NCBI GenBank assembly: GCA_046563655.1
Contig: CM102286.1
Coordinates: 3,162,001 to 3,226,000 of the forward strand
DNA from: Yuukianura sp. NJ FZ-2021
Lineage: Eukaryota
Length of the DNA: 64,000 nucleotides
Direction: 5' to 3'
Under the pieces are notes generated by a model. It made no database searches. It was given only the letters and a program-made list of their open reading frames with translations, and was not told the DNA's origin. Both the position numbers and the translations under genes were made by a program. Below are positions 1-48,926 of the stretch, piece after piece; position 1 is the stretch's first letter; every line of letters begins with the position of its first letter.

Positions 1-1013
1 CATCATAGCGGAAAGTTCAAAAAATCTTTTGTTTCATTTAACATTTCAACTGCAATCAAAATTTTGAAAGGGAAATGTGTCTATTGTTACCTTCATGTAT
101 CGATATCCTCATCAATCAAGACTGACAGGGATTAACGATTAACTACGAATCCTCAATCCTTTTACATGCAACATATACACAAAAAGTCGCCGGAATTAAA
201 AAAAAGTGTCATGTCATCTTACGGTCGAATATCTCTTCACTGTTATCATTCATCATTGTAGCGTAGGCGAAATTTTTATTTATAGAACTGCATGATTGGC
301 ACCTTCATGCAGAAGATGAGCTCCCTGCAATTATTGGCACCTTTGACACTTCATCTCTCACTAATTTCTTAGTCTTGGTACAAACCATTCAATTCATTCG
401 TAAATTTGTACACCATGTACCACAATAAATTGTGTAAGTCACCGTATGCAACATCTAAGTGCAGTAAGATTCGAAAGTGAAGGAAGTTGTAACCGAAAGT
501 GGTTTTTAATGTCAACAGACCTTAGGTATTCAGGTAACCAACAGAATAAATTATTCCGTTTGACATTTTATTGACGTTGTTGAACAATTTCATTTGTTGG
601 TGTCCAAAAAGTTACAAGTCCATTGAAAATTTAAATTTGCTTGGGCTAATTTCGCATTGAGTGCATTACTTCCACCTACAAAGTGTTTACAAATAAAATT
701 GACAAGTTTACAATGAAAAAAAGAAAGTGAGAAATTTTAACTGACTGGATCCAAGTACTGACACAAATGAAACTCGTTCGAGTTGAAGAAATTCAACAAC
801 TTTTTTGTTACAAAAGTTAGTTTTTGTTACAACAAAAATTATTGTGTCATTTTTTTAAGAATCTGCGGTAAAAATTTGTTACGTACACAAATTTTGTACA
901 CTGTGTTGTATCAAATGTTGTGTTTGTATTCAAGTCTTCAACAATGTATTCTGTGCGGTTTTCCATGAATTTGTTACGCATGGTTCCTATTATGAGCTTC
1001 CGCTAAGCATGGA

Positions 1014-7000: not shown

Positions 7001-10000
7001 TTTAGAAAAGGTGACAACCAAAAAAACCTATGAAGTATAAAGTCATTAAATTTTTTTTTGTCGTAATCAATCTTTTGTTAACTTGCTTCACGTTAGAATT
7101 AAGAGTTTAAGCACACGCCAAAATGAAAATAATTATGTGACTGTCGTTGCAAAATAAATGATTTAGATCAATCTCAATGCCAAATCGTTTATTTTTGTTA
7201 CTGAAATTTCTATAAAACATAAAACACAAAGGAGTCACGCACATGCGCCCTCACCTTACTAAACTTCGACTACACTAAAGTTTACTACACGAGTTTATTC
7301 GTGTTATTTCTTTTTCGAGTGGGAGATTGTGTCAGGAAGGAGAGAAATTAAAGTAAATACAAATCAAAATTGACCCATAACTCCCAGGCATGGAAGCGGC
7401 AATTTCAATTTCGAAAAAATTCTGCTCGTCAGGAACGTTCCCATGCATGGGAGAGGCATTTCCCATACCTTATGTATACCTAATAAAGTCCATTGTGTGC
7501 AAATATATTTTTCCTTGCGGAGATGGACATGCCAAGGGCTCTCTTCTTCCCATGTTCTTATGAAAATTGTTCAATAAGAACAGTGATTAAAACTCTTGAA
7601 GAATATTAAAAAACAAAGGCCTAAATCCCACTTTTTAGGGAGCGTCCACTCTGCAATTAAATCTCTATATTTATATTTTCAAGGAGTGTGTTGTGAAAGA
7701 TTTTCAAAATTTTCAATGGCCTCAAAAAATTTTCAATTTCGCACCTAAGATACTAAAACTTGGGAATTGAAATAATCGAAAGGCTAATCACGTCTAAAAG
7801 GCTTGTTTACAACTTAATATGCCTAACTGAAGGCCTCTTGACACAGATTGGATTTAGAAATTAAGCTCTTGTTAATAATTTGATGAACAAAGAAGTAGGT
7901 GCAGCGTACAAGTAGAAGAAATCGCAAAAAAGAAAACATGCGCAGTCAAAATATTTTCTAGCAATATAACATATGCGTCCATTCTGAAGTAATTAGCTAA
8001 GCAAATTTGAAATTTCCTGAAGGAGTTCCTTAAACAAAGAGCAATTAGCACTTGAATTAAGTGGACTCAGCACTTCATGTACTGCCCATCGAAACCTAAA
8101 ACCAAAAAGACATTGTAGAATTGTGAAATCACTTTTCTCCACTTGTCTTATATTTTCTTAACCTGAATTTCTAATCGTCATGTTCGTAAAACGAACTCTC
8201 TACTATGTTAAACTAAAAGTAACTTTTAGTTTTAATTCTCGTCAGATTCTAATCTGGACTTGTCCTCATTTTCTAGTACATTTTGTAATTACAACGGGCA
8301 AATACAGAACAAACCCCTTCATTATTTAAAGTCAAAAGCAGTTGCGCATGCGCTTAGGTCAAAGTAAATTGGAAGCAAGACTCAAAATTAAAATGCAGAC
8401 CAGGGCTATTGGGCAATAATTCTTTGAGAAAATCAATTTGGCAGGGAAAATAATGCATAGCTTTCTAAAACAATTTGAAAATATAATTTGTGAGAAGCAA
8501 TTCAGTCGAGAGTGATCGATAGTATCGAAAATCATCAAAATTATTTTGGCAATGATGTGCAAAAATGTGGCAAAGATGCTACTTAAGAAACGTTTTTTAA
8601 CGTGTTCCTGCAGCAAAAAAAAAGTAGAAAAAGATAAGATAAAAAATTAGTCAGAGAAACTTTTTTCTTCTCTAAAAAGCGAACACGTAAGAAATCTCAG
8701 CTCGAAATTTTAAACAAAGTCGTCGTTTTTTTAAGTTTTTGTGTGCTTTTTAGTTGTGTTTAATCTCATTCAGTGTTCTGATTTTTGTGCTCGACATTTA
8801 TGATGTGATACAGCTATTAATCTTAACTTGATACATTCACACCTACTCATCACCGTATAATAAAAGTATATTTTCAGAATTGTGTAGTATAGAAACTTTC
8901 TGTATCAAAAGTAATTTGTAAAAATGGCAAAGGGAAGAAACTGTGTATTAATTTTATTTTGAATTCATTGTTCTCTGCCGCCGTCAGAGATTTCTATTTT
9001 GCGTTTCGCACTTTGTGTGCTGACCACGAAAGGATAAACGTAATTGTGGGAAGAGTGAACGTCAGAGATGAATGTGGGTCACTCCTAGAGCCTTTGCTAA
9101 AGCCAATGCCAATGTCCGAGTCCCCACTGCGCAAGCGCAGGTTAGTTTTATGTTAACCGGTGACATGCATGTGCTTTCTAAATACTTTCACTTGAGGCTG
9201 TGCACAAGCCTCCTTGTCTAACCACCGTCCATTTCAAACTAGGCGAAACAAAGGACTTTAATACATTTTCGTTAAGGGTAGTTGCATTTGTATTTTCACG
9301 CCCCAGTTTTACACACTGTCAATTTCGCATGCTACGTACTATAACAGTACATACTAACTAATTTGTTATTGTGAAGCATACAACATGTACAATATTCCAC
9401 AAATACAAATTTTGCCCAATTAACATAACATAAAACTAAAAAATTCTTCAAAGCCTAATCTAACAATTTGCGTTTTAACGCAATTTCCAACACCGTTTTG
9501 GTTTCATTTTCAAAATTTTGAAAATATTGTATTACCTTACTTTGTCAAACCAAAATTCAAGACCTAGGGGAAAAAAATTTGAAACAAAATTTTTCTTTCT
9601 TTTTGTATTTTTTTTTCTCTTTTTGTATAAATGTAAAAAAACAGTCAAACATTGCAGTTTTTCCATTTAGGCAAACCGTTGAGTGTAAAATTGGTGCATT
9701 TTACGCTTCCAACTTTAGAAAAGCACGACGCAGCACTTTGGCAAAAGTTCAAAATTGGTGATGCGTGTAATATTAATATTACAATCATCAAGTTACACTT
9801 TTCGAAGGTAACGTGTAGTATAAGGTCCATCACGACTTTTTTGGGTTCACAGCATGTCAACTTCTTTTTAAAGAATTTTGAGGCGAGATGTCCCTGACCA
9901 GTATAAAAAATGAAGAATGATCATTTTGGATCTTTGTCTTCTCATTTTCTGAGGTTCTTGGAGTGAATGATAATGAAGCTTCAATTGATTATTGTAAACG

Positions 10001-13000
10001 GTCCGTGTTTAGTCTACCAAAATGTTATTTTGCATTTAGCGTCCAAATTTTGTTTTAGAATCGTGACAATGTTTTGAGGCTCTCTGCAGGGAGATTCATA
10101 AATCAAAACAACGCTCTCAGAAAAGTTCTCCCTCTGCTCATCATAGCAGAACGTTTTGCACAAAAATTCCATTGTTACAAGAAACTCAAATTTTGTTTTG
10201 TCCTGACCTTAGAAAGAAACGTCTGGCGTGAGGTAGACCATTGCCCTACGTTTAAGCTTAATGTTCAAGGTTTAGCTTTAATTTGAAAAGTAAATGGACA
10301 ATTTTGAGCGCGTTGGTTCAAAATATTAAAATGTACATACTAATGTTATGATAGACGTCAAGTGTATTGTTGTTTCTTGGGCTTGGCTTGGCCGTCGACG
10401 AACTCTTCGCCATTTTGCCATTTTCTTTCAAAATTTGTAAGCACAAGCTGTACTAAACTTCATCTCTCGCGTCAGTCACCTGCTGTGCTAAAAACACAAG
10501 CGAAACATTAAATCTTTGCAAAAATTAGTTTTCTGCTGCAGGCCAATATTGTTGTAGCCAGTAACTTAAACTTAATTGAACTTCACGCAAATTTCCATGT
10601 TTCATGCAGTGGTAAAACATTGTAAGTGGTATGTTAAGAATGCCACGCAATTGGTTAATCGTTTAACAATTAACAAGGTGTCATGCATTTGACACTTCTC
10701 AAAATTTTATAGCTCCGAGAAGGATTCAGAAGAATTCCAAAACGTTTCTTCTTTATTTTTTGTCAGAAATAACTTAATTGAAAATTTTGCGGGTTTTTGC
10801 AGTTGAAAACCTAGACAAGTTTTTTTTTCTAAAATTTATGGGATGAGTAATTTTGTAGTGTATGACACAATGACCTTTGACCTTCCTTGAAATCTTGGAT
10901 TCTCTTCACATAATGAAACGTAATAAGATCAACACAGGTCAAAGGACCTGTTAGAAGAAAGTTTCAAAAAAAGTTGTTGCAAATTAAGTACAAATTTTCA
11001 CAAAACTTGTTGCAAATTAAGTGCAAATTTCCCGAAGTCAGGCACTTGCCCCGTACGTGCTTCGCCTGTATTTATCGACCCCACCTACAAACCCGGTTAT
11101 TAAAATTTTTACTTTACACTTTACCAATTTACGCTTTGTTAATTACTATTTTTTTGTCGATCAATAATTACTATGTGGAGCAATTAGTTAAGCTTAAATA
11201 CCACAACAATGTTAATCAAGGAAGAGAATTCTGCGCATGAAACGTTGCGCAGAGGTGAGTTTGGAATGAAGGTCAGAAGAGCAAATTCCTTCCTTTTGGA
11301 ATTAAATTTATTTTTTGTAGCTCCGCGGAATTGTGTGGTGAGATCAGGAATGTGATTCGCCGTATTTTTTTTTTTGCAAAGTACCCGTGCACTGTACTAT
11401 ACTTAAAATTACGGTAGTTTCCCATAAAGCTTTTTGGATCTCACCAAAAGCCCAAATAAACCCATTTTGCAAAATAGAATTTTGCGAAACTATTCCTCCT
11501 CGCACATCATCATCATCATCGTTTCCCATAGACTTTAATATAGAAACAGGAGATTTATGAACGGAACCTTTTGAACCAGGAGCATCATGGACGGCTATTC
11601 TTAGACGTAAGATAACATACAAAATGAATATAAGAAGATTCTAGTTTGATTCGTCCATGAGTGAACGCAAACAACAATAGTAGTGTGTAAGTTTCCGTTC
11701 ATGAGTTTCCCATTACGCTGTAATACATATAATATAAGCCTACATATGCATGCAATTTTTTTTCGCGCTTCGCCGCAAGTGGCCATGGCATCAACTTCTG
11801 TGAACATTGGCCAATTTTTTGCAAATTCTTTCCCAAAAAAAAATACACTGTGCGTCATTTTTTCGCAAGGATGCTGTCGGCACTGTTGAAGTTTAATGTC
11901 ACTACTCGATTGTGTTTTGAGTAGAAACACAGTTTATGTACTCGTAGTACAGAGATTCTTTTAAACTGAAGTTGATTCATTATCCAAACCTAAAAGTATA
12001 CTAAACCTTTTCGGCAGAAAAATTCAAACGTTCCCTCTTGTGCCAACGCGAGTGAGTGCATTGTCCTGTCTCCTTCGGAACCAACTGTATTTAATTCCGG
12101 CTCAACTTAATCTTCCACTTAAATGCGGAAAGACTTTTCTTAGTTCCGCTTAGTTCTGTGCGCATGATCCAAACAAAACGCACCAACTGGCAAACTCAAG
12201 TCTACTTTTTTACTTATGGTACAAGGTTCGAATCTTGGAAGTTCAAAACAAGCCTATTCATTTCCTTTGCTTTCTTCTTCAAAATCTACCGCCAATTTCA
12301 TGGTGAGATCGTCATTGCAAAAAAGCGCCAAAGTTTGTTTTGATTTTCATCCAATTTGACCATGTCAAAAAATTTGCTTTCTTTGCGGTTGTTGCTTGTG
12401 TGACCACAAAGTTTTACATCACCAACAGGCGACAAAATGTTCATGCAAAATCAAAATTTTACGTGTAAAAAAACGATAAAAGACGATTTCAAAAAACATT
12501 ACTTTCCTTTTGCAGAATAGGAAAATATGCCAACAAGTGTATTTTCAGATTCAGAATTTTTTGTGAAAATTTTGGGAAAAGTGAGGAAAAATGTTAACTT
12601 TTATTTTTAAACCTAATTAATCTATTTAACAGACTTGCATTTTTAAAAACTTCTTTAAGAAAAGAGCCGCTTCAGGTTTCGCAACTTTTTTTTGGAATAA
12701 AAAAAAATCTAAAATTTAAATAACAAGCTCTGTATTTCAAAACAAATCAAAAAGAAATCAAAACTTTAATTATCGAGTTGCAAATTAGTGGTTTTAATTA
12801 CATGATAGTTAACTGAATCCTTGAATTTTTTTTTGTGCAAAAAGAAATCGCTGCAAATCGTGTTATATAAAGTTTGAAACTTTTTTTTGCAAAGCTGAGA
12901 ATTTTTCGAAATAAATATCTCAGAAAAAAAAATTAAGGAAAGTGTACTTGACTTTTAAAAAAACTGATTTAATTGACCGGTTTTCCTTGTTGGATGATTT

Positions 13001-14279
13001 GATTAATCCAACACTTAAAGTAATCATGTTCTCACAAAGAGTTAATTCTTCTTTATAAATTTGCGCATGCTCAACCTTAGCTGTCATAAATTCCAGTTTG
13101 AGAAGGACTCTGGTCATCTTTAGATTAATAAATTTGAGGCCATTGAAGAAGATAACACCTTGCCTTGAATCAAAATTTTAAAATTCTTTTCCGTTTCCCA
13201 CAATTACTTTTCGTTTTCATTTTTTAACTAGCAATTAAACGATGACATTCGACCTGTCACTCAACAGGATTTATTTCAAGGAAGCCGTCTAATCCTCTTC
13301 CCGTTGTTTGCAAAAATTTATTGCAAAAATATTGGCAAATCCAAAAAAATAATTGGGACATCGCAGGAACTTTGCATGAGGCGAAGGTTGTGGAACCATG
13401 CTGGGAATATTTAAACAGACGCTAAAGTGTCCTACCCAATTTTCCATTGTTGTTGTGTTATGCATAGCATTAGAACACACGAATTGATCAACGTTAACAA
13501 AACTGACTTTTCATTGTTCCTTTTCCTTGCATTCTGTAGTCTCGTCAAGTCTATAAAAATCAATTGTTATACTTTAGACAAGGTCGCCTGCTCTAAAACT
13601 ATTTTCATAATGCCAAAACAGTGGAGGGAGTAACTATATAGAGTGTCTGCATTTTTGCTTTTGTTCACTTTTTTATGTTTTTCCCATAGTCTATTGTTCG
13701 TTATGTACAGAAGAGTGAAGTAATTATTTCAATTAAACATTAGTGGCCCAATTACTAACTAACTGCGTTTATCCTTTCATTTTGTTATAAAAATTTCATT
13801 TTTTTGTTATACGCAAAATGGTTGTCGAAATTTTAAATACAACGGATGCACTTGGTTCACATCGCCCCTCTTTCGCTTGCGTCACGTTCCGGTTTGACAT
13901 GAATTAGAGCGTGGAGGTGTTGCGATGTAATGTGAAGATGATTGACATCACATAAATCACAATTTGAAAAAATTTCAAAAAAATTTCGCAAAAACATGTA
14001 AACTTTGCAAACATTTTCGAAAATGTAGCCCTTGAAATCTGTCAATTTAAGGCCAAATTGAAACTAAAAAAAATGTTAAGCAAATTGTAAATTTTCCCTT
14101 TAAATTAGAGGAATGTCGTTCAAAATAGACTCAAATTTCGTGATCAAAATTCAATGAATTTTTGAAGTCAAAAGACAACCTCCCATTACGTTTGGCCCTC
14201 ATTAATCCCTTGCATGATTTCATTTTCATTTGGAGACTTAAAACTTTCAAGGTAAATTGAAGGTAGAGGGACATGCGCA
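1014..14279. promoter_or_regulatory. Non-coding region with dispersed TGCGCATG (NRF-1/Erect-wing-like) motifs
   Basis: Exact TGCGCATG or CATGCGCA at 1014, 2268, 5549, 6228, 7937, 8343, 11232, 12159, 13062 and 14272. No credible coding exons found. Confidence 0.45.
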
Positions 14280-15101: not shown

Positions 15102-18100
15102 ATGGGCAACAACAACTCGGCTGCCGCTTCGGCGCAAGGCAGTAGCCCTGCCAAGCATCACTTGACTCCCCACCACACCCAGTGGTCCCACGTCCCACCG
15201 CATTCTGGCGGAGCAGATGACAGCGATGACCCCAGAAATCGCATGAGAAAAGGTTACGCAGTGAAGCCGTACATGGCACAACGCACGACACCACAAAAAG
15301 TACTTCCGACTGTGAATCCCACAAAGGCAGCCAAGAAACTCAAACCTACCTCAAACGGTAACCGACCTTCGTAGGAACAAGTTGACATTTTTTTTAAATC
15401 TGCAAGCAATATTTTCAAAAAACTTCAATTTTTTTTTGTTTTTAGGCCGAAATCTGAAACAACTTGGAACAATTTCCGGAAGGAAATTTGAACTGGACGA
15501 GGAACAGCCCCTCTCCAGCAGTGCCATCACGGAGGAAATGCATAGACTTCGACTCGGGCCTGCGCAGTACCGTCTGCCCAAAGACGAGCGTCTGCCAATC
15601 AGTCGTCAAAATGGCCTCTCGTCACCGAATCTGACCGATGACAGATTTGTGTCACGCGGGGGGCTGACTCCGGAACGGCGGAATTTTCATGACAGTGAAC
15701 CGGAATTGACTTCTAGGCAAAACGGTTTCAGCCAATCAGTGCCAATTTCTCATCATCCAGGAAACTTTGTTCAAGAAAGTCCAGCAAAAAAGCAAATCAG
15801 AACAAAAAAGAAGTCTGCGCCGCCACCACCGAATGATTCCAAAAAATCCCAAGTTTTTGAAAATTCAAAAGTGCCACCATCACAACTAGCTTCTGAAGCC
15901 GTCAAAGTTCATCAGCGATTGTTTCAAACTAAAGCAGACAGAAAACTGTCATCTTCGTCAGTTGAACCGTCAGGGGGAGCCACCACTTCTTCACAGAGTG
16001 TCACATCTTCTTCAACTTCAGCAATTCCAAAAGAAGTTCAGTCTTCTGGCAGAATGGGTCCTGCCAGAAGTTCTACGCAGTCTCCCGTCCACCAATCAGA
16101 TTCGACTCCAAACGTCATACGCATGCGCAATAAGAAATCTAACAAATCAGGACCAATCAGTGACCAAAGTGTGTCCCCCGACTCCGTTCCAGGAAAAAAG
16201 CACTACATTCCATATTCATTTGGCCCTGATAAGGACCACAGAGTGAAACGTGAAAATTCACGTCGCGTGGCGTCTCCACCATTAAAAAATGGCGCCAAAC
16301 ATGGCAATGACTTGGACAAGGAATCTAGATTGGAAAAAATCGTTGCAGAGAAAAAACGTTTCTATTTTGGCATGGATTTGGTCGATTTTGGATCAAATCC
16401 TTCCAGACCAACTTTAGACGAAATTGGACAAACTCCGAAAACTTCCGAACAAAAACCGACAATACCCGAACTTTCATCATTCTCTTTCTATAAAACGAAA
16501 GACGCCAAAGAAGAATCCTTAAGTGACAACATCAGCAGCAGTTCCGAGATGGACATCGTTCTTCGTCCAACTCTCCCGCCAAAACCTCAACAACTTCCAA
16601 AATTTTCACCCTCGGCAGCCTGGAATCGAATTGACCTGGATTCTCCGAATTCCTCAGAAGAGGAAGCGCTAAGATTCAATTGTCGAATTAACAAAAGTTC
16701 AAAAAGCGGTGTATCACAGGCTGTAGGCAAGGAACGACTTGGTGAAGGTGACTCGGGTATTTCCGGACTTGATGGTGACGGAGGCGGGAGTCCCGAGATT
16801 CTATCTCCACCACTCCCGCCAATTTCAACCGGTTTAAGTAAAGGACCATGTTGGACACCAGAACAAGATTTGGACGACAGTAGTTCCGAATTTGACGGAG
16901 AAGATGACGACGACATTCCTCTGAGCAGTGCTCAACTTCAACCGTGCTACCGTTCTTCTGACAGACCTAGACTAACTACAAGAAAAAACTTTTTTAGTTC
17001 AAAAAGTGACACTGAACAACCGTTCAAAGATGAACCCAGTTCGCTCCAAAGAAAAACGGAGCCAATTTATGCTTGTTCAACCAAAGCCAAAGGTGCTGCT
17101 GTCAATGCCACCATTACCGGTGGGGATCATAACCTGACCTCTCCCACCTCCCCCACTACTGGGGGTGGGGCCAATACTGATTCCCACCCTCTAGAGTTCA
17201 AACCTAGTCTGAATAGGATAATCAACTACAGAAGGACGCAGCGACTCAACAAGGAAGTGGGACTCGATGCAAACTGGTTCCTGAGTCGTAGTGAGCCCAA
17301 CAGCTTGAATCTAACGCACTTGATGGTCGGAGGTGAAGCGGGACCGTGCGGAAACGGAGACGCGGAAGAGGAAGGCATTCGATCGGAAAATGGCTATGCA
17401 CCAACGGGTATCAATTTTGAAATTGCCGCAAATTCACCACCGTCAGAATGGAATAAGTCAGCGAGCCTTATCAGCCTCTCACACTTTGTCTACCTCCCAC
17501 AACAGCGACAAGGTGGGGATGACACGTCGTCATCTTCAAAACGGAATCGCAGAACCAAGAGTGTTGAAAATCTTCTCAGACAAAATGAAAATAGTCAGAC
17601 AGTTCAGGCGCATGACCCTGAAAAAAATCAGTTATCCCAACAGTCTCAACAGAATCACTACAAACGAAAAAAATTCAAGTTTCAAAGTACACTAAAAGTT
17701 ATGGAAAGAAAACGAATTGAAAAAGAGTTGTCGAGAGAAGCTGAAGAAAAAGAAAGTGAAAGGCTCAAGGAAATTGAAGCCATGAAACGGGTAAAAATAA
17801 ATTTCAAAAACTAAAAAATCTTAAAAATTTCAAAGCAAATAGTTTACTTTTTTAAAATCAGGTCGAAGAAGAGTTTCAAAGAAAGCGAAAAGGCAAAGAA
17901 AAAGAACACGAGGTGCCAATTCAAATTCAAAATGGATTAAAACCAAAGGCAATGTTGCCCAGCAGTAACGTTTCGAGAGTAACATCTATTAGTCCTTGGG
18001 AAGAACCAATCAAAAACAGGACAGATCTGCGCAAGCCGTTTACTCGAACGACAACCCCGAGTCAGTTTTCAGACAACAGTAGTACCCGAAGTACATCAAA

Positions 18101-21489: not shown

Positions 21490-22992
21490 TTACTTTCTCC
21501 CTAGTGGAACGCAGAACCCTGAAAACAGACAAAACTTCGTTTTCTGTGGTTTTTGGTTTTTGCCAGGCTTTTTCCTATCGGGTGTTACGGGGGGTGACAC
21601 CGAGCTAGTTCCAGAACCAGATCCATGACCAGTATTGCTGTTTATAGTCCCGTCAGCATGGTTCGCTCCAGTGCCAACGGCATTGCTAGACCCTATCAGC
21701 ACAAGTCAGTTTTTATCAGACAGTTCGAAATTTTAGATGTGTAGCTGACCGGTAAGCGGTAACTGATTGAATTTGGAATGTACCAGTAGCAATGCCAAAG
21801 CCAGATCCACTACCGGAGGCGGTACTACCACCAGTTCCAACTGTGGCTGTGCCACCACCGCTACCACCAATCAATGCCTGGGTATGCCCACCAGAAGTGG
21901 CACTGGATCCACCAGAAGCGAACCCACCCGTGGCTCCACTGGCACCAGCAGAAGTAGTTCCACTAGCCTGGGCACCGCCTTTGTTATTCGTGGCCTTATT
22001 ATAATTTGGAAGGCCTGTTTGCATAAAAAATTTCATTTTTATTCAATTCCATTTTGAGAGTAATAAAAAATAAATAAATACAAAAACAGTATTTGTCGAA
22101 TTGCTTAAATATCGGCCTTGCCTAAATACTCTGTTTGGTCCATTCCTAATTCGACGAATAATGCTTCAGGGTGGTGCCAACCGCCGTGACCTTCATGAGC
22201 CCAACCTTCTCCGCCGCCACTGCCCTGTATTAACATTCAAGGTTTGTAAATGTTTATGTGAGCTTCAGGGTTCACATTCCCTTGAGGACGAAAGGAGTGA
22301 AAGATAGTAGGGGAAAATATCTCAACTTAATGGGATTCGAACCCAAGTCTCTTCAATCCGAGAAATGCTCTAACCCTTGAGCTATCGGCTCCTTCCTACG
22401 TTATATCTCAGGGGATGATTGCCCATTTGCCCAACGCCATATTCATACAAAATAGTCGTGTAGTTTACAACTTCTTACCTCCATATCTACATCAGAACTT
22501 GTGTCGGCGGAAGATCCAGGGCCGTGACCTTGCGCCCATGAACTAGCACTTCCTGTTCCGCACGCCTGCCCTGCTCCTTGGCCTAAACAAAAATTATTGT
22601 CAAAAACAAAATTAGGATGGATATTTCTTTTTAAATTTCAGAAAAATTTGAAAAATTTTGTCACCTTCAGCTACTCCATTCTGAACAATGCCACCACCGC
22701 CTCCACCAGCACAAATGACAATACTTGCGCTGCTTCCACTCGAAGCGTCGACTGATCCAGTAGCTGAACCCGTAGCAGTTGCAGTTCCACTCGTCGAGCC
22801 ATGTCCAGCTCCACCAGCGCCTAAACCGCCACCATTTCCTAAACCTAAAATATAAAAAGTTTCGAAACTTTTAAAACTTCGACGTTTTTAATTTGAAAAT
22901 CTGTGTTTCTTTTTCTCACGGTCTAAAGGCAGTGCTAAAAGTAAATCAGCTAAGACAATTACAATTAAACTAAGAATTAGAATGAGTTGCAT
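21490..22992 (-). CDS. Secreted Gly/Ser/Ala/Thr-rich protein with basic, two-Cys C-terminus
   Basis: Signal peptide MQLILILSLIVIVLADLLLALP. Exons 22992-22920, 22844-22665, 22582-22479, 22224-22122, 22014-21784, 21692-21490; joining exons 4 and 5 needs a GC donor. Ends ...KKPGKNQKPQKTKFCLFSGFCVPLGRK*. Confidence 0.7.
22325..22402 (-). mobile_element. tRNA-derived element (SINE head or tRNA pseudogene) in an intron
   Basis: Minus strand GGAGCCGATAGCTCAAGGGTTAGAGC...TGGGTTCGAATCCCA gives an A-box, a GCTC/GAGC D-stem, a B-box and a T-stem, but no good acceptor or anticodon stem. Flanked by direct repeat ATATCTCA (22317-22324, 22403-22410). Confidence 0.6.
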
Positions 22993-29643: not shown

Positions 29644-30298
29644 TTCAAAACGAGAACTGCACGCCATCATTGTCTTCATCTGTATGTGTTTGCGCATGTC
29701 AAATCCGACTTCTCAAAGACTGTCAATTTGTAACTTCACTCGTGTGGTTGTTGTACTTGTGTGCCTTCTTGATCTGCTTACACTCCAGAATCCAGACCGT
29801 AAAAATGCTAGTTTTGTCTTACCGTTTTGAATTGACTTTCTTACGCTTTATACTTTATACTGCTTTCTAAATACTAAAATTGATTAAATATGTTTGTATC
29901 ATAAACTTTTAGGCAATTCCATTCAACGCCAGAGCATGTCTTTAGCACGAAAACAATAAGTGCGAATTCAGCAAGTTGGCAACAGTGAAACTGAACCACT
30001 TTGGGGTAAGGTGTATAAGGTTTCAATGGGAAATTGCCAATGACAATTTACTAGTTTCAGTGTTGCCAACTTGTATTCTTCGCAAAAAATTCGCATGTTT
30101 TGTTTTCGCAATATTGACCTGGTACCTTCAAAATTCCACGTCGAAATTTTCCATAGACCGAGACTAACTAAATTGTCTTTATTCATAAAATATTTTGAAC
30201 ATTTTCAGCCCAAGCTGCTTTTCTAAATCTACTGATGAGTATACCTTGTCAAAAAACAAAATTTACAGATAGATTTTTTAGAAAATTCAAACTAAATT

Positions 30299-33200
30299 CT
30301 ATGCTTTGTCGTCGTTTTCTTTCGGCTCTTCATTGTGTTCTGCCTCCTCAGTGGGTTGATCTTTGTCTTCTGGTTTCCCCAGTTGTTCAATCGTTTCCAA
30401 AATGAGGGCCAAGTAAAAGTTAACGAAGCAGAACACAGTAATGGCCAAGAATCCAATGACGTAAAACCCTGCAAGAACCGGATATCCGCAAGGTGGGCCC
30501 TCACCAGTTTCACCCTCCTTGACACAGTTCTCTACGTTCGAAATTCTGTAGTAGACGCCTTCCATTCCAGAAATAGTTGCCACTTCGAGCAGAGTTGTAG
30601 TTGAATTCCAAGAAGCAAAGGTTTCCGTTAAGGCTCCAAATGTAGTTGCTCCGAACCATGAAAACGAGGCGTACAGAAGACCGTAGAATACCGTGATACA
30701 AGACAGTACCGGGAAACACTTGCATAGAGCTCGTCGGAAACTGCCGAACTCCGGTATTTTGTAGCTGCCGATTCCATCTAGGGCGAGTAGATGAAACAAA
30801 CGGAATGCTCTTGGAATGCCAGCTGAAATGGCAAACGCTGCTACCTCGATCATAATGGCTTCTATGGGTGACATATCAATAAATAAAGTATATTATTTCA
30901 TATATTATATACATTTTTTGAAACCTATATTTTTAATATTTTACCTGTGATTGACAGAAGGATGACCACAATCAGCAGGTAGTTTAGCCAATGTTTGAAA
31001 AGGTCTAGCTTGAACGTTACAGCTCGCAGGACAAGCTCGACAATGTACAAGAGCAGTATTACGTGGTGGAGCCAAGTGAAAACTGTCTCTGTAGTCTAGA
31101 AGTAAGAAGTCGACTTTTGTAAGTTAATAATTATCATTACTAATTATAAATAAATTCGTTAAAATAATGTAATAATTATCGTTTTGCTGAAATTATAGAT
31201 TTTGGACTTACCTCACTTATTTCGCCAAATTCGATCGCATACAGGATGGAATCGACCAAAATAGTAAAACAGACCCACAGTTCAAAGTATGGAGTGTCGA
31301 CGTATTTGCCCAGAAATCCACCAGAAGCTTTGCGTTGTTCGGCTGGCTTTGATTTACATGGCCAACCTTGTTCGAAAATTTGAATCCACTGTAATTTAAA
31401 AAAACCACTTTACTTTACTGTTTACTTTTTAGCAATTTTGTTTTAAATTTTTTTTCAAAGTTCTTACGCTCTCTCGCTTGAAGTCGTGAAACAAAATGCC
31501 AACCATGGATGCCAACGGAAATAGGACGCCATAAATCAAGAAAACGATGAAGTAGATCATAGACAGCGGTCGCGAGTCTAACTTAGGCGAGGAATCAATC
31601 TAAACCAGCACATGATTAAATGTTACGTTAACTTTTTTTAAAAATTGGGCGGAGTTTATGTAGACATTTTTAAGTTTATTTAAAAGCAAGCCGTTTACCC
31701 CGGTTCTGTCTTCGGCTTCAATGATTGGATGAATCCATCCGTTTTTGGCAGCCGTTAGATACAACGTCCACATGCCGTCGCGTACTGTGTTGAAATTTTC
31801 TGGACCAGTGGCCCAGGACATATTATTTTGAATGCATTCCTTTTTAGTTGGTACAACATTGTGGTACATGACGTTTCCATCTCCATCTATACACTAGAAT
31901 AGCAACATTTGTAAAAATTTTGGCAAACCTACACAGCTCGGCGGAAATTTTCAGTAAGCGCTAGATTTACCTAATGCAATTAACTTAACTGTTGTGTTAA
32001 TACTTATGTTTACTATGTACCTTGAAGAATTGGCCTCCGAACAATGTCATCCCCAACAGCGCAAAAACGAACCAGACGAAAAGTGTAGCTGCAAAATACT
32101 GCCAAAGCATGCGCATTTGCTTCCAGAGTTGATTTCGAACAAGTCGCAATCCAGTAATTCTGCACACAATCATCAGGAGTCTTAATGTTCCAAAGTTCCA
32201 AACTCCATACTTCGTCTCCAGCGTCAACGCTAACACTCCGTTGATAACTTGGAGCGCATCAAAAAGAAGTCCAAGACTTAGAATTCGTCGACCAAAGCCA
32301 AGAAGTGCCGCTCGACCAATAACTTCTATGCCAAAGTAACACACAAACGTGATTTCAGCTGCCAGTGGTTCATATGCTGCCAGTACCGACAAAGCCACAA
32401 TCAGGGAGCATACGAAGATCTTATAACCAAAATGAGCCATGATCTTTTCTGGAAGGATAGGTTCAGGGTCTGCTTCAGGATCAACTTTTTTCGGTTTCGG
32501 TGGAACAATAGTTGCTTCATCTTCTTTTCCATTTGCAACTTTGTCACCATCTCCTTCGTTTTCAGTTTCTTTGGCGGGAGAATTCAGTTCATGTTTTTCA
32601 TCATCGTCTTCGTCATCCGATTCTACCAGCTCTTCTCCCGTAATCTTGGCTTCAACGCGCCGACATAAAAGTTCAACTGGCCAGAAGATTCGCTCGAGAG
32701 AAGTTCGTTTGGTATCGGATTCGGTACGGGTAGTAAGAAGATTGTAGGCGGTGAGGACAATGCAGAGACCAAGGCAAGTGACCAAGAAGTTTCCGATGAT
32801 ACCCGAAGTTGCCATGAATAGGATTGAGGTGAAACCGGGACTTACTAGAAGCAGATCCCACAGAGTTTCGATCCATTCGCCACAAAATGCACGAAGTTGA
32901 AGTCGATAGGAATGCCAGAAGTCTACCATGTTCCATCTTGGAATTTCAGAATGCGGAAATGCAGCTGCATTTGCTAAAATTGGCAAAAAGAAAAAGTTTG
33001 TGGAAATTGTCTAAACTTTTACTACATTTTCGAACTTACTTTTGTAGCTTTCCCCAAAACTGATATAACCAATGTACGCAAACAGAAAGAGAAAAATTGC
33101 AGCGATTCCGAATGTCCAACGAGTCCAAATGCCTGTGCCCATGACGTCAAAGAGGAAGTTCAACTTTGGCCACCGTGGTACAATCTTTAAAACTGTGATC

Positions 33201-36006
33201 TACGTAAAAATAAAAACTCCGGGATCACATAGTATAATCCTTTGCTCTTTTCAAAAATGGTGAAACGTTTTTAAATTTCAAAAAACTTAGAAATTAGATT
33301 TGGTTAATCATGTATTAGAAGTTTTACGGTATTCTACTTACCACGATCACAGTACCGAAGTATCCACTTCCAAATATATAACGAAGACCAATGATGAATG
33401 CGACAACAAAATCAAACCGATTCCAGCAACAGTCCCAGTATGGTTTTCCAACGAACACAACTTTGAGAATACATTCCACAACGTACACAAAATGGATGAT
33501 CTAGAGCAAAACGGCGGCAGTTTTTAATTTTTTTTGTGAAACTTTTTAGGAGTGAACTGAAAAACGAAAAAAAACAATTCAAAATTTTGAACATTACCGC
33601 GTTTGCCCAGTTCAAAAATATCCCATGGACTGCGTCGTCTGGAATGTGATAAGCGTCCGTTGAAAACGTTATGATGTCCAGCAGTATGACAAACGTGATG
33701 AACAAATCAAAGTTTTTGTCTGTAACAAATTTTCGCCCTTCTTCTCTTATTTTGCCCCAACTGTTGGACGGAGTTACTTCAAAACGCCGTGACCAAACGT
33801 TTGATTTTTCGCAGCATTTTCTATCCAGTTCGCATTTCAAATTTGAAAAACCGCTCAAAAATTCGTATCCAAGGACAGAGTACACGAGAACTCCAGTTGA
33901 CATGGTCCCGACAAAGAAGACGAAGAAGGCATAGATGATATGGGCAGAGGAGTGAGTAACCCAAATCTAGAAAGTTCAAAATTTTCAAAATACTTTACAA
34001 ATTTCAAAATTCGGTCTTACCTTTTGATAAACATATTCTGTAAAATCTTGGAAAACGAGGTTCAACAGCGTTAGTTCAGCAAGACCCAAGTTGTCAAATC
34101 CTACGCTTCCGCCCATTGGATTTTCTCCGGCTTTGACACAAACGTGGTCCGGTGGACATGAAATGCTCCTATATAAGATTTTTCAAATTTCAAAAATGTT
34201 TTAAATTTTCACCTATTTTTTTTTTTTTTTTTACATTTTTTGAAATACCATGAGTAGTTGGAACAAGCCCGGTATTCCCCGTCAGGATTGGTCAAGAACA
34301 TGTCATCTGTAAAGTTGGCGCCACTTTCGAAAATTTGAGTTGCCGTTGTGTTCAAAACACATTTGTTTCTCAACGTTGTGTAATACAGGCCTGACGAAAC
34401 GATTCCCAACAGGAAAAAGATGACCAGGCCAAACAGAGTGGCATGCAAAAGACGCTGCCATGATTTTTTAAAAAGCAAGTCGTACCCGCCAAGCCAACCT
34501 AAAAAACAACCCGACCATGATCAGTTCAGAACTCAAAATTCAAAATCTACAGACAATAGTAGTAGTAAAGAACAAAAAAAACTTCTTTTTCTTGAAAATT
34601 TTAAAAATAAGTACTAAAATTCATAAAAACTTCATTAAAAGTGTAAAAATAATGCGTTTTTTGAAGTGTCGTGAGTAAACGTACTTGGAATTAATGGAAT
34701 CAGTTTCAATGCTCGAAAGGCATTCAGTGCCGCCAAGGTCCTGTTGGCTGGATACACAATACTTAAAATTCTGTAATAAAAAAAAGTAGTTTTCCATAAA
34801 AAAAAAAAGTCGTTTTCATAAAAACTAAAAAGAGGGTGTGAGTCCTACTTAAAATCTTAATTTATGCAACCATTGTGTTTACTTCAAACTATTGTTTTTC
34901 CTCACCCAGTGACAATGACGAACACGTCCAGCCAACTCCATGAAATTTGCAAAGTGGAAAACGGGTTCTTGGCCTTGAAAAGACCTCGCGCTAAGACTTT
35001 TAGTGTAAACTCCAAGATGTACAGAGACACGAAAGCCAAACTGTGTGGTAAACCAATCAAATTGTTTGTTAAGCTTATGAATTTTGGGTTAAGGTTAGGT
35101 TTTTATGACTTTTTAGAAGTTTGTTAGTGTAGTTGATTTATGCTTTTTGCAAATTGGAGTTAATCAGTTTAAGTGAAAGATGAAGTCATTGTCTTACTTG
35201 GATATTTTTATAGCCAAGCCATAGTTGAGTCCATCTTCAGATGCCGGTGGTGCTGGTGGAGCTGGAGCGCTGTCAATTGCTGTAGATGCTGCTGGAGCTG
35301 GTTTTGCAGGGTCAAATGGAATTGCTCCATAAATTACAAGGTTTAGCAAAATTGCGAGCACCATGAAATAGTTGAAGACGCCGTGCGTGAGAATTGAAAT
35401 TGCTTGATTCCGCCAGCCACCGTTGGCCTTGACATAGGCAGCAGCATCTCCAAATCGGTACAAAATCCGACTTCCTCGACCAATCACGACAAAAGTCTAA
35501 ATTCAAAATTTTGAACATTCAAAATTCAAAACATTTCAGTTTGACGAAAAGTTTGCCAGTAGCATTTGAAACAACAAAAAATGTCGAAAAGAAGCAGTTT
35601 TGCACGTATTTAGTTAAAAGTTTGAATGAAATCGAAAAAATTGAACCGAAATAGAAAATATCAAAAATTGGTTTTTAGAATGCTCTAGGAATATTTTCTT
35701 TTCTTTTTTGAAATGCTATTGATGTAAAAAGTTTACGTCTTTTTTCTGGTACTCTGAACTGATTTCTCGAAGTGGAATGCCCGTCAAATTGTCTCGAATT
35801 TTCCCGCGTACTGGAATTGGCAAAAGATGGCCATTGAGCACAGTGGGTGTCGTCGGTTGTTGACCTTTGGCTTTATTTCGTCCCCCTTCCAATCCAATTT
35901 CTTCTTCAATTTCTTTAATGTCTTCCAAAATTTCTTGGTGAATTGGATCCAACAAAAGAGACACAAAATTTAAATTGCTATAATCTGGCGCCGACGACGA
36001 CGCCAT
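30299..36006 (-). CDS. Divergent four-domain voltage-gated sodium channel family alpha subunit (~1348 aa, DENS filter, degenerate S4s)
   Basis: 15 GT-AG exons, all phase-consistent: 36006-35737, 35496-35198, 35040-34906, 34770-34685, 34498-34249, 34168-34021, 33966-33598, 33500-33342, 33199-33040, 32973-32021, 31893-31699, 31599-31468, 31388-31212, 31095-30945, 30861-30299 (4047 nt). Nav hallmarks: TFVVIGRG..LYRF, LRNKC, CPPDHVCVKAGENP..GFDN, EIPRWNMVDFWHS..FCGEWIETLWD, LFGGQFFKC, VNFYLALILE. Confidence 0.9.
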
Positions 36007-37841
36007 TTCTTCTCTATTGTTCCAAAAACTTTCAAAAGAAGACTTTTAAGTGTCTAAAAATAGTCAGTGAAGCAACTGAATATAAAATCCGAGGATCAAA
36101 ACCTGTTTTTAAAGATGTCGAGAGTAAGCTAAACTTATGTCAAAGATGCTCTTATCACTCTCTGACGCTAGTAAACTACTAACTACTTTCTATTTTGTTC
36201 TTAGAAAACAAACTTCCCAATTAAATCCTTTTGTAAAAGAGATGATTCTGCTCCAACTGGAATCAACATGACGAATAAGCTAGTGGACAATGCTAAATTT
36301 ATGACAGGGGTTGATCTTCTCCCCTCTTCTTCGGCTTCCCCGTCAATTTCAACTGAATTATAGGAGAACAAGGATTTAATGCCTAAATAGTGTGTTACAT
36401 AATTGAATCCAAGAGCTTAGCTTGTTCCTCCTGCTTCAAAAACTTTACAAGCCGTTCCACTGCTCTGGTCTTGAACATCTTGTTGATTTGACCTCCAGGC
36501 TATTTTGTGCTAACTTGTTTGGCAGGGTAATGACATAAAATAACATTAGGCCGGGCCGGACCGGACGGCCCAAGGTCACTTTCCAAGTGTTCTGCGTGCG
36601 TGAACACCTCATTTTGTAATGCTTGGCTGCTCCCCTGCCCAGTTTTTCTGTTTTGTTCACTTTAAACAGGAAACTGAAAAATCAAGATCCATGACACGAT
36701 ATGACGTTTAGGAATTTCAAAAGGGAGCGTCCAAACTTCAGATTTTATTACTTTCAAAAGCCTGCTTCAAATTAAAAAAGAATCACATTTAAGTCATTTC
36801 AAAAGTTCTTTTTGAATATTTTGAAATTGAGAGTTTTTTGTGTGTGTTCAGCAGAGCATGTCATTCTAGAAATAGATAAATTAAATCCGGAGTTGAACGG
36901 GGTTACATTGGGGTTACGCTTTTGTTTACGAAAATGCTGACTCTTTTAGTCTAAACAGAGGTCAAATGTCAACATCAATGGAGCGCAGATTTGTGATGAC
37001 AAGATGACATAATCACTTTCTTTTCGGCAGCGGCGCCAGTATAGAAAACGCTGGCGTTGGACGCATTAAAGATAATCCAACTGACGCTAATTTACCATGC
37101 GTCATTTGTTTACCCTCGGACTACCGACGTTGTAAAAATATGAAGATAGATAAACGTGATGATGTATTGTTTTTGTACATTAAAACGATTTCCTTAAACT
37201 TTGTAAAAGGAAATGGGGGTGAAATTATCTCCATTTCCTGCGAGTCAAGTTCAATACTACAAAACATTTCTTGTTCAGGTCAGTTTTTAAACCAATACAA
37301 ATATGTAAGTAACGCCGTGTAAATTTGTACGAAATTGTAGAAATTTATTTAGTAGTTGGGCCGTGTAAGGCCGTATTCTCACAGCACCTTGGGTATAATT
37401 TTAGATAAAACTTAACTCGTGTCAAAAGCCAGGTCACCTGAAAAAATAATCAGACACGACCTGAATTATAGTTTCAAAAAGTATGCTGAAAGCGGATTTC
37501 TGCCTTGAAAACAATTGTTTTTTCAAGGAATTGAAGAAAATGAGGACGATTTGAAGAAATCTGGACTCCACTGCTATGCTGAAGCTGAACAAAATAATTT
37601 ATTTTGTTAAGCTCGCTGATTGAGTTAGCATTGTGCTTGACAGAGTAAACTAGAACGCATGTCAAATGTCATGTCAAGTAAAAGTAAGAATTCTGAAAAA
37701 TATCAGATTTTGGCCTTAATAATTTTCATATTTATATCAGTGGAAATCTAAAATATTTTCAGAACCGAAAGCAACTTACAACTTTTCTGAGCCTTATAGG
37801 CATCCTAATTTTTCAAAATACCTCTTTTTTTGCATCTTCAA

Positions 37842-46859: not shown

Positions 46860-47356
46860 AAGTACCGTGACTTTCCGATATTTTTTAATGTTACCACTCA
46901 TGTGGATAAGTTGATGCTGATGCCGTCTTGCAATTTGTAACTTTGGTTTAAAAAAAAGTTAGAGTCCGTGGGTATTCCTTGTGTTTTGTTTTATTTTAAA
47001 ATGTGAAACAATAGAAATACGTTTTTCCATTGTTTCACATTTTAAAAACCCAGTAACCTGAAGGCATTGACAGGATTAAGGTCAAAGGGGCTGACTTACA
47101 TTTTGGATGTTTTTGTGTCAAAATTAATTCTTAACGTTTCGAATGAATCAGGCCAGTTAAGTTCCGGCTTCCCATATCTTTCATTAGTTATAACATGTTC
47201 ACGGCATCAGTTAATGTCGTTTTAATAGCCGTTGCGGAGTGTTCATGTTCATTAAGAACACGATAGTTTCCAAAAAGCTAGCTGCATTTTGAACTGTGTT
47301 GCCTGTTGCTTGTGTATTTCTGCTATTCATAGCATATTAGTGATCTGTGAGTAAGA

Positions 47357-48926
47357 ATGACTTATGCAGTGCAGGATCCGTTTAAACCGGAAGTTGAAAT
47401 CGATACCTCTTGCAAAAATATATACAAACTATGGCTTCTCGTTAACAAGACTTGGAATCACTTCCACTTTCAACTAATAGCGTCACGGAAGAAGCATATC
47501 TTACATTGCCTCCTCATGATTGCATTTATGATCATGCCCATCTTAATTTATCTGGATACGGAGGTAACAATCACAAGCCAAATTTATGGAAGATGGACCA
47601 CTTACGCCCTCTACGTCATCAGGATACTTTCTGTATTGATGGGTTTGCCATACGAAGTGATGGTGTTCATTGGACTGTTTTTCTACAATGCATTTCCTGG
47701 ACCAGTGCATCTCAAACGTACAAATATGGCGGACTATCCGTTCATTTGCTTCCGAGTGGCTACGAAAGGACTTTGTCAAAACCTGGTCAGAAGCACTGTA
47801 GCCAGAAATCTCAAAATTATACTGGACAAAGGAGTAACAATGTTCCAGATTCAAGTTGTCACTAACAATTTTGTGCCTGGAATTTCAAGTCATCCACAAG
47901 TAGAACAACTAGTTGTTCCGGAAGACTACGAAACGAAAAGCGGGTCATTGTACAAGGCCAGAAATTTGCAATACGCTCTCGAACAAGGTAACAATGAAAA
48001 AAAATGAAATTTTTTGAAATTCTGAAAACTAAAATTGATTTTCTGTAATTTTAGATTGTTTATACGACAATGATTGGTTGGTACACTTGGATGAAGAAAC
48101 ACTTTTAACTCCGAATTCATTATGTGGAATTCTCAACTTCGTTGCAGAAGGGAAGCACCAGTTTGGTCAAGGGCTCGTGACATACTCAAACGACGGAGTT
48201 GTCAATTGGACAACAACGTTGGCCGACATCAATCGATTAGCCGACGATTTGGGCAAGATTCGTGCCCAGTTTAAGCTCTTCCATGCTCCACTTTTTTCAA
48301 TGAAAGGTCCTTATACCGTTTGCCAAGTCGGAGCTGAACGTAGAATTGGATTTGATGATGGCCCGGATGCATCGATTGCCGAAGACTGTCATTTTGTAAT
48401 GAAGGCGTACGAGATGGGATACAGTTTTGGGTTTATCGAAGGAGAAATGTGGGAATTTTCGCCATTCACTTTATGGGATTTCGTTCTTCAACGCAAGCGC
48501 TGGTTCCAGGGAATCCTTTTGGTCATTTACACAAGCGGAAGGAGATTTAAAACAATGATTTGGCTTATCATCGACTTTCATAACAAATTTCTCCAGCCAG
48601 TTCCATGGATTTTTGTACTGCTGGATTTGTACAAGGTTGTTCCAATTCCAGTATGGTTCCAGCTAGTTGCTCTCCCATTTTATGGACTTCGAGTTTACAT
48701 GTACGTATTTGGAATTTTAAAGTCGGCGGAGTGTAGTAACTCGCCACATGAAAAAAGTTACTTGAGATTAATCGGCCTTAGTTTGTATACAATCATAATA
48801 GTACGTACTATACATACTGCCATGGATATTGTCGCAATGGTTCTGGGGTTGTGGCAGTCAAAGCACGGCTTTTACTTGGTCAAAAAAGAAATCCTAAATA
48901 GGTCAAAGAGTGATGAGCAAGTCTGA
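47357..48926 (+). CDS. Egghead/BRE-3-like GT2 beta-1,4-mannosyltransferase (divergent)
   Basis: Exons 47357-47987 and 48055-48926. Motifs PFICFRVATKG, KARNLQYAL, DWLVHLDEET, FGQGLVTY, SIAEDC, and QRKRW (QxxRW); N- and C-terminal TM segments. Confidence 0.88.

Follow-up and report, generated by a model that had tools for sequence, protein, structure and literature searches.

Few animal proteins are as conserved as the Nav1 channels, whose S4 arginines are near-invariant, and to our knowledge vertebrate NaX is the one well-studied natural exception to this conservation. NALCN, another four-domain protein that carries a leak conductance but belongs to a different family from the channel described here, has fewer charges in its S4 segments than Nav or Cav channels do. 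NaX is described as a voltage-insensitive member of the Nav1 family in which S4 charges are fewer, Asn stands at the position of the filter Lys and the III-IV linker has diverged; in the same account, NaX with its gate opened by mutation is a non-selective leak, and the wild-type protein gives no currents when expressed in ordinary systems (PMC8931054). For NavPaS (PaFPC1), from the American cockroach, sodium currents are reported to be absent in Xenopus oocytes (PMC13087302). The two-subunit Nav1 of aphids has a DENS filter and, according to a figure legend, conserved positively charged S4 residues; the same filter introduced into Drosophila Nav1 is reported to bring the reversal potential down to about 24-25 mV, from 71 mV, and to lower both Na+ selectivity and TTX sensitivity (PMC4332693). 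Ascidians carry extra Nav1 copies, CiNav1b and CiNav1c, described as less conserved than the main copy in filter, S4, ankyrin motif and latch, with D/E/T/E as the CiNav1b filter (PMC8192821). A limited literature search found no earlier description of an invertebrate channel of the kind presented below. Within the window, that is, the whole 64-kb stretch of DNA analysed, lies a gene that we read, at about even confidence and from its sequence features, as an intact, selectively maintained and extremely divergent Nav1 (para-type) descendant with static voltage-sensor-like domains.

The gene occupies 36006..30299 on the minus strand (as do all features below) and, by manual splicing checked with a script, comprises 15 exons encoding a 1348-aa four-domain channel, hereafter the model, with tblastn and Pfam matches along the spliced sequence. 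Its exons lie at 36006-35737, 35496-35198, 35040-34906, 34770-34685 and 34498-34249 (exons 1-5), 34168-34021, 33966-33598, 33500-33342, 33199-33040 and 32973-32021 (exons 6-10), and 31893-31699, 31599-31468, 31388-31212, 31095-30945 and 30861-30299 (exons 11-15). The spliced coding sequence is 4047 nt in frame, 1348 codons plus a stop, and open throughout, and 14/14 introns, each 54-240 nt, are GT-AG, in keeping with the original prediction that frame and introns are intact. Relatives matched by tblastn only within these 15 exons, and Pfam Ion_trans matches fell in exons 7, 8, 9, 10 and 15. As in Nav1, four six-segment domains, all alignable with relatives, form one polypeptide; exon 10 is common to DII and DIII, and a single gene encodes all four domains. 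An aphid-type two-gene channel was rejected on this basis: the aphid channel shares the D-E-N-S filter but consists of two polypeptides with charged S4 segments, whereas the model is one polypeptide with stripped S4 segments. Alignment also places a Pro/Ala-rich insertion of ~32-37 aa in the DI S1-S2 loop (35206..35316).

As the splice junctions were predicted from DNA alone, the true transcripts might use other exons or splice sites that restore an RxxRxxR pattern, an explanation we consider very improbable. Introns of the size given above hold A-rich runs interrupted by stop codons and no S4-like coding stretch, and tblastn searches that used the model itself, para, a fish Nav1.4 and a Nav2-type protein as queries found no match beyond the model exons in the 64 kb, so that neither a second copy of any exon nor an alternative S4 exon was found in the window. 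The DIII and DIV S4 segments, moreover, both lie inside long uninterrupted exons, and the same DIII S4 recurs in P0001, an independent open reading frame of another assembly that is 40% identical to the model with identical exon limits. There the segment is likewise stripped, with Lys and Arg at the places of the model's two Arg.

All four S4 strings quoted in the original prediction are present in the spliced minus-strand translation, and its view of these segments as largely stripped of charge holds. Aligned with 30 relatives by MAFFT and scored at the columns of the 22 S4 Arg/Lys of Apolygus para (P0172), the model is basic at 7/22 positions and has lost the other 15/22 charges. Among the 26 relatives not marked partial, 23 keep 19-22 (22 in 13, 21 in 6, 20 in 1 and 19 in 3), and the lowest are P0032 (16/22), P0063 (15/22) and P0006 (13/22). 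Without any alignment, [RK]xx[RK]xx[RK] motifs number 0 in the model vs 5-18 in 76/76 relatives of at least 1300 aa; the regular spacing of Nav1, in which each of the four S4 segments has Arg or Lys at every third residue, is thus missing. The overall basic content of the 1348-aa protein is ordinary (R 3.7%, K 4.5%).

The losses are distributed over all four domains. The canonical columns of the DI S4 (aa 244-263; 34686..34745) read A-N-R-K, with R1 and R2 replaced by Ala and Asn, as had been claimed, R3 and K4 kept, and an additional Arg three residues ahead of the R1 position. The DII S4, split by intron 8 between the end of exon 8 (aa 565-572; 33342..33365) and the start of exon 9 (aa 573-583; 33167..33199), reads G-I-T-K-P: R1 is replaced by Gly and R2 by Ile in the first part, and R3 by Thr and K5 by Pro in the second, K4 being kept, which agrees with the claimed absence of R1-R3. 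The DIII S4 (aa 882-901; 32147..32206) reads gap-gap-gap-R-M-R and is 6-9 residues shorter than those of relatives; its register differs between MAFFT and HMMER against NavPaS, and both leave just two basic residues, in the MAFFT columns both Arg. The DIV S4 (aa 1169-1189; 30779..30841) reads R-R-H-A-G-P-G, with Arg, Arg and His at the outer three positions, the outermost two being the only Arg, as predicted, no basic residue further in, and Asp next after the segment.

Acidic countercharges are retained at the S2 Glu in 4/4 domains and at the S3 Asp in DI-DIII, and because of these and the residual charge in DI and DIV, weak voltage dependence is possible. A paper listed among the references of PMC8931054 describes NALCN, by its title, as voltage sensitive, so that few S4 charges need not mean no sensing. 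The channel could then still be voltage-gated, though its gating charge would be small: the basic residues that remain (the pre-R1 Arg, R3 and K4 in DI, K4 in DII, the two Arg in DIII, and R1, R2 and His in DIV) would move in the field and give a shallow or shifted voltage dependence. We judge this unlikely, since 7/22 lies below the 13 of the NaX-like P0006, no domain has three basic residues in three-residue register, and the positions lost in DI-DIII are the outer ones, the first to cross the field. The S6 Asn is also gone from DI-DIII, where its column holds a gap in DI, Cys in DII and Ala in DIII.

Despite these losses the kinship of the model is with Nav1. The clade of 17 rows that joins the model to the Nav1 rows is supported at SH-aLRT 100, and the model does not fall with Nav2; no smaller starred set contains the model. 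Its terminal branch is 7.58 vs a median of 0.41, and its top identity to any relative in the tree comparison is 26%. A tree constrained to group the model and the arthropod Nav1 rows is worse by 4.31 lnL (p-AU 0.0255), a borderline value for a group named after the tree was seen. A search of 1.84 billion representative proteins found one relative. Among PDB matches, those at E 3.1e-11 or better are exclusively Nav chains, Cav chains appear at E 4e-5 or weaker, and no NALCN chain occurs at E 0.001 or 0.01, where the matches are just Nav and Cav; NALCN kinship was rejected on these matches and on the position inside the Nav1 clade. NavPaS is the best structure match of both long exons (2.8e-20 and 1.2e-10) and a compact Nav1-type channel like the model, but has arginine-rich S4 segments and Ala at the DIV filter position; its motifs were found in none of the 202 fetched proteins, and the comparison uses the PDB-search alignments. 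The neighbouring gene, egghead, best matches arthropods, whereas CiNav1b and CiNav1c are chordate genes. The egghead branch is itself long (2.29 vs a median of 0.19): the whole lineage evolves fast, and part of the channel divergence is accordingly background and not a sign of altered function. A septin gene in convergent orientation ends at 29643.

The pore combines conserved and altered positions. The filter is D-E-N-S in place of the D-E-K-A of Nav1: the DI loop (34036..34059) has the filter Asp388, with the adjoining conserved Trp replaced by Thr; the DII loop (32864..32887) has Glu658 by alignment; the DIII loop (31732..31755) has Asn994 at the filter Lys of relatives, with a Lys one residue earlier; and the DIV loop (30557..30580) has Ser1259 at the relatives' Ala, the next Trp being Met. 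All 8/8 turret Cys are kept (C310, C342, C351, C357, C944, C963, C1274 and C1286), each aligned with Cys of 15/15 reference rows, as is the DII pore-loop Cys. They follow the 4-0-2-2 pattern of eight turret cysteines described for Nav1, a family whose III-IV linker near-universally has 53-57 aa according to the same review (PMC6259924). In the model this linker (aa 1049-1084, across intron 12; 31293..31479) is ~36 aa and has I-F-E at the site of the relatives' M-F-M or I-F-M, so the inactivation latch is absent. The protein stops after an acidic tail of ~28-32 residues beyond IVS6 (30302..30397, by alignment); it has no C-terminal domain, and the para C-terminus had no tblastn match anywhere in the window. 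The losses of latch, linker length, C-terminal domain and S6 Asn fit a channel that is no longer a depolarisation-activated, fast-inactivating Na+ channel.

The parallel with NaX drawn in the original prediction stands for the reduction of S4 charge and fails in its filter detail: DENS had been given as the NaX filter, which is DENA where described, and belongs instead to the aphid two-subunit Nav1 (PMC4332693). The model resembles NaX in being a Nav1 derivative with reduced S4 charges, Asn at the filter Lys and an altered linker. P0006 and P0063, which from their sequences are probably NaX-type proteins, nevertheless have a C-terminal domain and nest within vertebrate Nav1; the model does neither, so membership of the NaX lineage was rejected, the DENS filter of the locus also differing. 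Charge loss in the model is deeper than in these two proteins, and independent.

Sequence differences were used to gauge whether the gene is maintained, the set being the best-supported 40 of 394, each of which may be at haplotype or species level. Within these 40, 22 differences fall in exons, of which 14 are synonymous and 8 nonsynonymous (pN/pS 0.17, binomial p 5.6e-5), and among the best 12 of 40 indels 11/12 are intronic, the single exonic one being 3 nt. To judge from these differences, the gene is under purifying selection, intact and selectively maintained. Within the same best 40 of 394, 5/8 nonsynonymous changes cluster in DII S3-S4, so the DII sensor may simply be drifting.

A protein that does not conduct at all, whether maintained as a channel-shaped scaffold or sensor with a different role or encoded by a gene in early decay, seems rather unlikely to us. 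The length of the terminal branch, the low top identity, the replaced pore Trp of DI and DIV and the missing C-terminal domain and latch would all be in line with it, and because standard expression systems are reported to yield no currents from NaX and NavPaS (PMC8931054; PMC13087302), a silent protein is conceivable. The decay variant, however, sits poorly with a frame unbroken over 15 exons, the low pN/pS, exons avoided by the best 12 of 40 indels, and the retention of every turret Cys together with the filter Asp and Glu. The same features are kept in P0001, in which the pore loop is the best-kept segment relative to the model (23/37 identical). None of these points tells against a protein that is maintained without conducting.

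Under the preferred reading of a maintained Nav1 descendant, the four S1-S4 bundles would be static 'voltage-sensor-like' scaffolds rather than movable sensors. Conductance, if there is any, would depend weakly or not at all on voltage and select poorly for Na+. Depolarisation would not be what opens the channel; a protein partner, a ligand or constitutive leak, for instance, could take its place, in functional convergence with vertebrate NaX. The original prediction, partly supported by these results, had likewise proposed a channel that is no longer voltage-gated and may be a leak, Na-sensing or ligand/partner-gated one. According to one review (PMC6259924), most invertebrates have a single Nav1 gene. 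The gene could accordingly be the sole Nav1 of a fast-evolving arthropod-like lineage that has given up para-driven sodium spikes and turned its one para gene into a voltage-insensitive, non-selective cation channel, an invertebrate counterpart of NaX that arose independently; we regard this version as unlikely, and consider it more likely that the gene is a paralogue and that the animal has a normal para gene as well.

A second loss of S4 charge, independent of that in NaX and deeper, would be a natural experiment on the Nav scaffold without its sensors: here charge, latch and C-terminal domain have been lost while selection still appears to hold the pore scaffold. At 1348 aa the protein is compact and a candidate for structural work on 'voltage-sensor-like' domains. 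Were it indeed the animal's only Nav1, the lineage would have abandoned para-type excitability.

The channel gene lies on the minus strand, from 36006 to 30299, and comprises 15 exons that were read from the sequence and then spliced by script. All 14 introns (54-240 nt each) have GT-AG borders, and the open frame of 4047 nt encodes 1348 residues. Each of the four S4 strings that the original prediction quoted was found in this spliced translation, on the minus strand at 34686-34745 (DI), 33342-33365 plus 33167-33199 (DII), 32147-32206 (DIII) and 30779-30841 (DIV). For charge scoring, the model and 30 relatives were aligned with MAFFT, and the 22 columns holding S4 arginine or lysine in Apolygus para were compared. 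The model is basic at 7 of these 22 columns, with A-N-R-K in DI, G-I-T-K-P in DII, gap-gap-gap-R-M-R in DIII and R-R-H-A-G-P-G in DIV. By comparison, 19-22 charges are present in 23 of the 26 relatives not marked as partial (the remaining three have 16, 15 and 13), which bears out the earlier claim that the S4 segments are stripped of charge. An alignment-free count gave the same picture, with the [RK]xx[RK]xx[RK] motif absent from the model and occurring 5-18 times in every one of the 76 relatives of at least 1300 aa; the overall Arg plus Lys content of the model is normal. The S4 of DI has one additional Arg three residues ahead of R1, and that of DIV keeps two outer Arg and one His. The DIII S4 is 6-9 residues short, and MAFFT and HMMER disagree on its register, with two basic residues left under either alignment. 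Among the countercharges, the S2 Glu is retained throughout DI-DIV and the S3 Asp in the first three domains. A channel with shallow voltage dependence is a rival reading.

An artefact of the gene model is the least likely of the alternative explanations, since no S4-like coding stretch was found in the channel introns and no further channel-like copy was found in the 64 kb. Here, tblastn searches with insect para, a fish Nav1.4, a Nav2-type protein, two fetched relatives (P0032 and P0001) and the model itself gave matches confined to the 15 model exons.

Every solved structure matching exon 10 at E 3.1e-11 or better is a Nav chain, led by cockroach NavPaS (E 2.8e-20; best human chain, 7.7e-16), with Cav chains at E 4e-5 or weaker only and no NALCN chain among the matches. 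Exon 15 gave the same order. A special kinship with NavPaS was also considered, but on exon 15 an ordinary insect para reaches a score (47.8 bits, tblastn) similar to that of NavPaS (44.8 bits, phmmer). The best score of the whole model is 337.5 bits, against insect para. A tree built from 25 rows and 1404 columns puts the model inside the Nav1 clade (SH-aLRT 100), with no finer position supported within it, on a terminal branch of 7.58 compared with a median of 0.41; its highest identity to any row is 26%. Constraining the model to group with arthropod Nav1 sequences lowers lnL by 4.31 (p-AU 0.0255), a borderline value for a group picked after viewing the tree. One of the relatives, P0032 (1426 aa), nests within hexapod para and retains 16 of the 22 S4 charges, with 2 of 6 in DIII; in sequence, this looks like an independent, partial loss of S4 charge in another para-type protein.

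Close relatives of the model are scarce. An exon 10 HMMER search of 1.84 billion representative proteins returned 414 matches at E ≤0.001 and one at ≤1e-30, namely P0001, a 301-aa open reading frame on a 2630-nt Logan contig that forms a singleton cluster. A word-based search with exon 10 gave no match among proteins of similar length and 52 among longer proteins, all ordinary para/Nav (best E 1.6e-14). P0001 is 40% identical to the model, shares its exon limits and has Lys and Arg in DIII S4 at the two places of the Arg residues of the model. Of the segments compared, the pore loop is the best conserved between the two (23/37), with S4 among the least (8/23). The signature motifs of the family were absent from the other 201 fetched proteins, and two scans of metagenome contigs (one with exon 10 and P0001, one with exon 15) yielded no relative.

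The neighbours of the channel in the window are ordinary animal genes, encoding a ZIP transporter, a septin, dystroglycan, DnaJ, a Bud32-like kinase, egghead, Yip1 and a PH-domain protein. Of these, egghead is a gene of the protostome type. The egghead-like housekeeping gene (47351-48926, plus strand) shares 47-53% identity with proteins of arthropods and tardigrades, and the named matches among the 120 listed are all arthropod or tardigrade. Its terminal branch lies outside the sampled insects, springtail and barnacle and measures 2.29, compared with a median of 0.19, indicating that the whole genome is fast-evolving; that of the channel is about threefold longer. A septin exon matches ‘CiSeptin-2’ (146.7 bits) by a slight margin over human septin-2 (140.6 bits). 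A tunicate origin was weighed and rejected as unsupported, the named egghead matches listed being confined to arthropods and tardigrades. Other features of the window include an AT-rich stretch at 1-14000 (GC 0.33-0.36) with no open frame of at least 130 residues, the remainder being gene-dense; a Ser/Pro-rich open frame of 832 residues at 15316-17814 (plus strand) without a Pfam match; and a borderline Rfam tRNA match at 22322-22391 (minus strand; 30.1 bits, cut-off 29) with no ARAGORN call.

Losses extend beyond the sensors. D-E-N-S forms the selectivity filter, and a Lys immediately precedes the DIII filter position. In DI and DIV the conserved pore Trp of relatives is replaced, by Thr and Met respectively. 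The III-IV linker has about 36 aa, with I-F-E at the site of M-F-M or I-F-M in relatives; linkers of 53-57 aa are described as near-universal in four-domain channels (PMC6259924). The model stops about 30 residues past IVS6 and thus has no C-terminal domain. The S6 Asn is retained in DIV only, the model having a gap (DI), Cys (DII) and Ala (DIII) at the other positions. The extracellular S1-S2 loop of DI contains an insertion of about 32-37 residues, rich in Pro and Ala (35206-35316, minus strand), that is absent from all aligned relatives. All eight turret cysteines are retained, each aligned to a Cys found in 15 of 15 reference rows, and several of the conserved cysteines located elsewhere are missing; this 4-0-2-2 cysteine pattern of the turrets is described as near-universal in four-domain channels (PMC6259924). 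Overall, most of the S4 charge is gone from the channel, as are the latch, the C-terminal domain and the Lys of the filter.

The variation at the locus bears on whether the gene is still maintained. Contigs from two DNA runs differ from the locus at 394 places; the 40 best supported comprise 18 non-coding, 14 synonymous and 8 nonsynonymous differences. Over 933 synonymous and 3111 nonsynonymous sites, these give a pN/pS of 0.17 (p 5.6e-5), with differences not separated by carrier haplotype or species. Eleven of 12 indels examined, from a total of 40, are intronic, and the sole exonic one is a 3-nt removal. Both sets of figures, drawn from a subset of the differences, argue against a pseudogene. 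In a comparison of pore and sensor constraint that rests on small numbers of listed variants, the S5-S6 parts hold five synonymous and one nonsynonymous change and the S1-S4 parts five of each. Eight listed variants cluster at 33353-33399 (codons 553-569, from DII S3 to the start of S4) and include 5 of the 8 nonsynonymous changes, one of which replaces Gly by Glu where S4 begins; constraint on the protein may be weakest in the DII sensor. We note that run X1 carries several versions of the locus over 30250-36100, its 232 contigs dividing into 80, 60, 62 and 30 at 99% or more, 95-99%, 90-95% and <90% likeness, a pattern that points to haplotype divergence, pooling of animals or additional copies.

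Several known systems resemble parts of this channel. NaX, with fewer S4 charges, a DENA locus (compared with DENS here) and a III-IV linker that has diverged, is reported to be insensitive to voltage; a non-selective leak is unlocked by three mutations in S6 (PMC8931054). The two-subunit Nav1 of aphids also has a DENS filter, which in Drosophila Nav1 reduces the reversal potential from 71 to ~24-25 mV (PMC4332693). Nav1 is described as a singleton in most invertebrates (PMC6259924), and ascidians as having additional Nav1 copies in which filter, S4 and latch are less conserved (PMC8192821). In the main texts of the literature searched, no invertebrate relative of Nav1 was found in which the S4s of all four domains are stripped. 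NavPaS (PaFPC1 of the American cockroach) is described as giving no conduction in oocytes (PMC13087302), and a maintained yet silent protein is a rival reading of the present gene.

The gene is an intact, constrained Nav1 derivative with a conserved pore scaffold. Under the preferred reading, the four sensors would be static, any current would be voltage-independent or weakly voltage-dependent and non-selective, and gating would come from a source other than the sensors.
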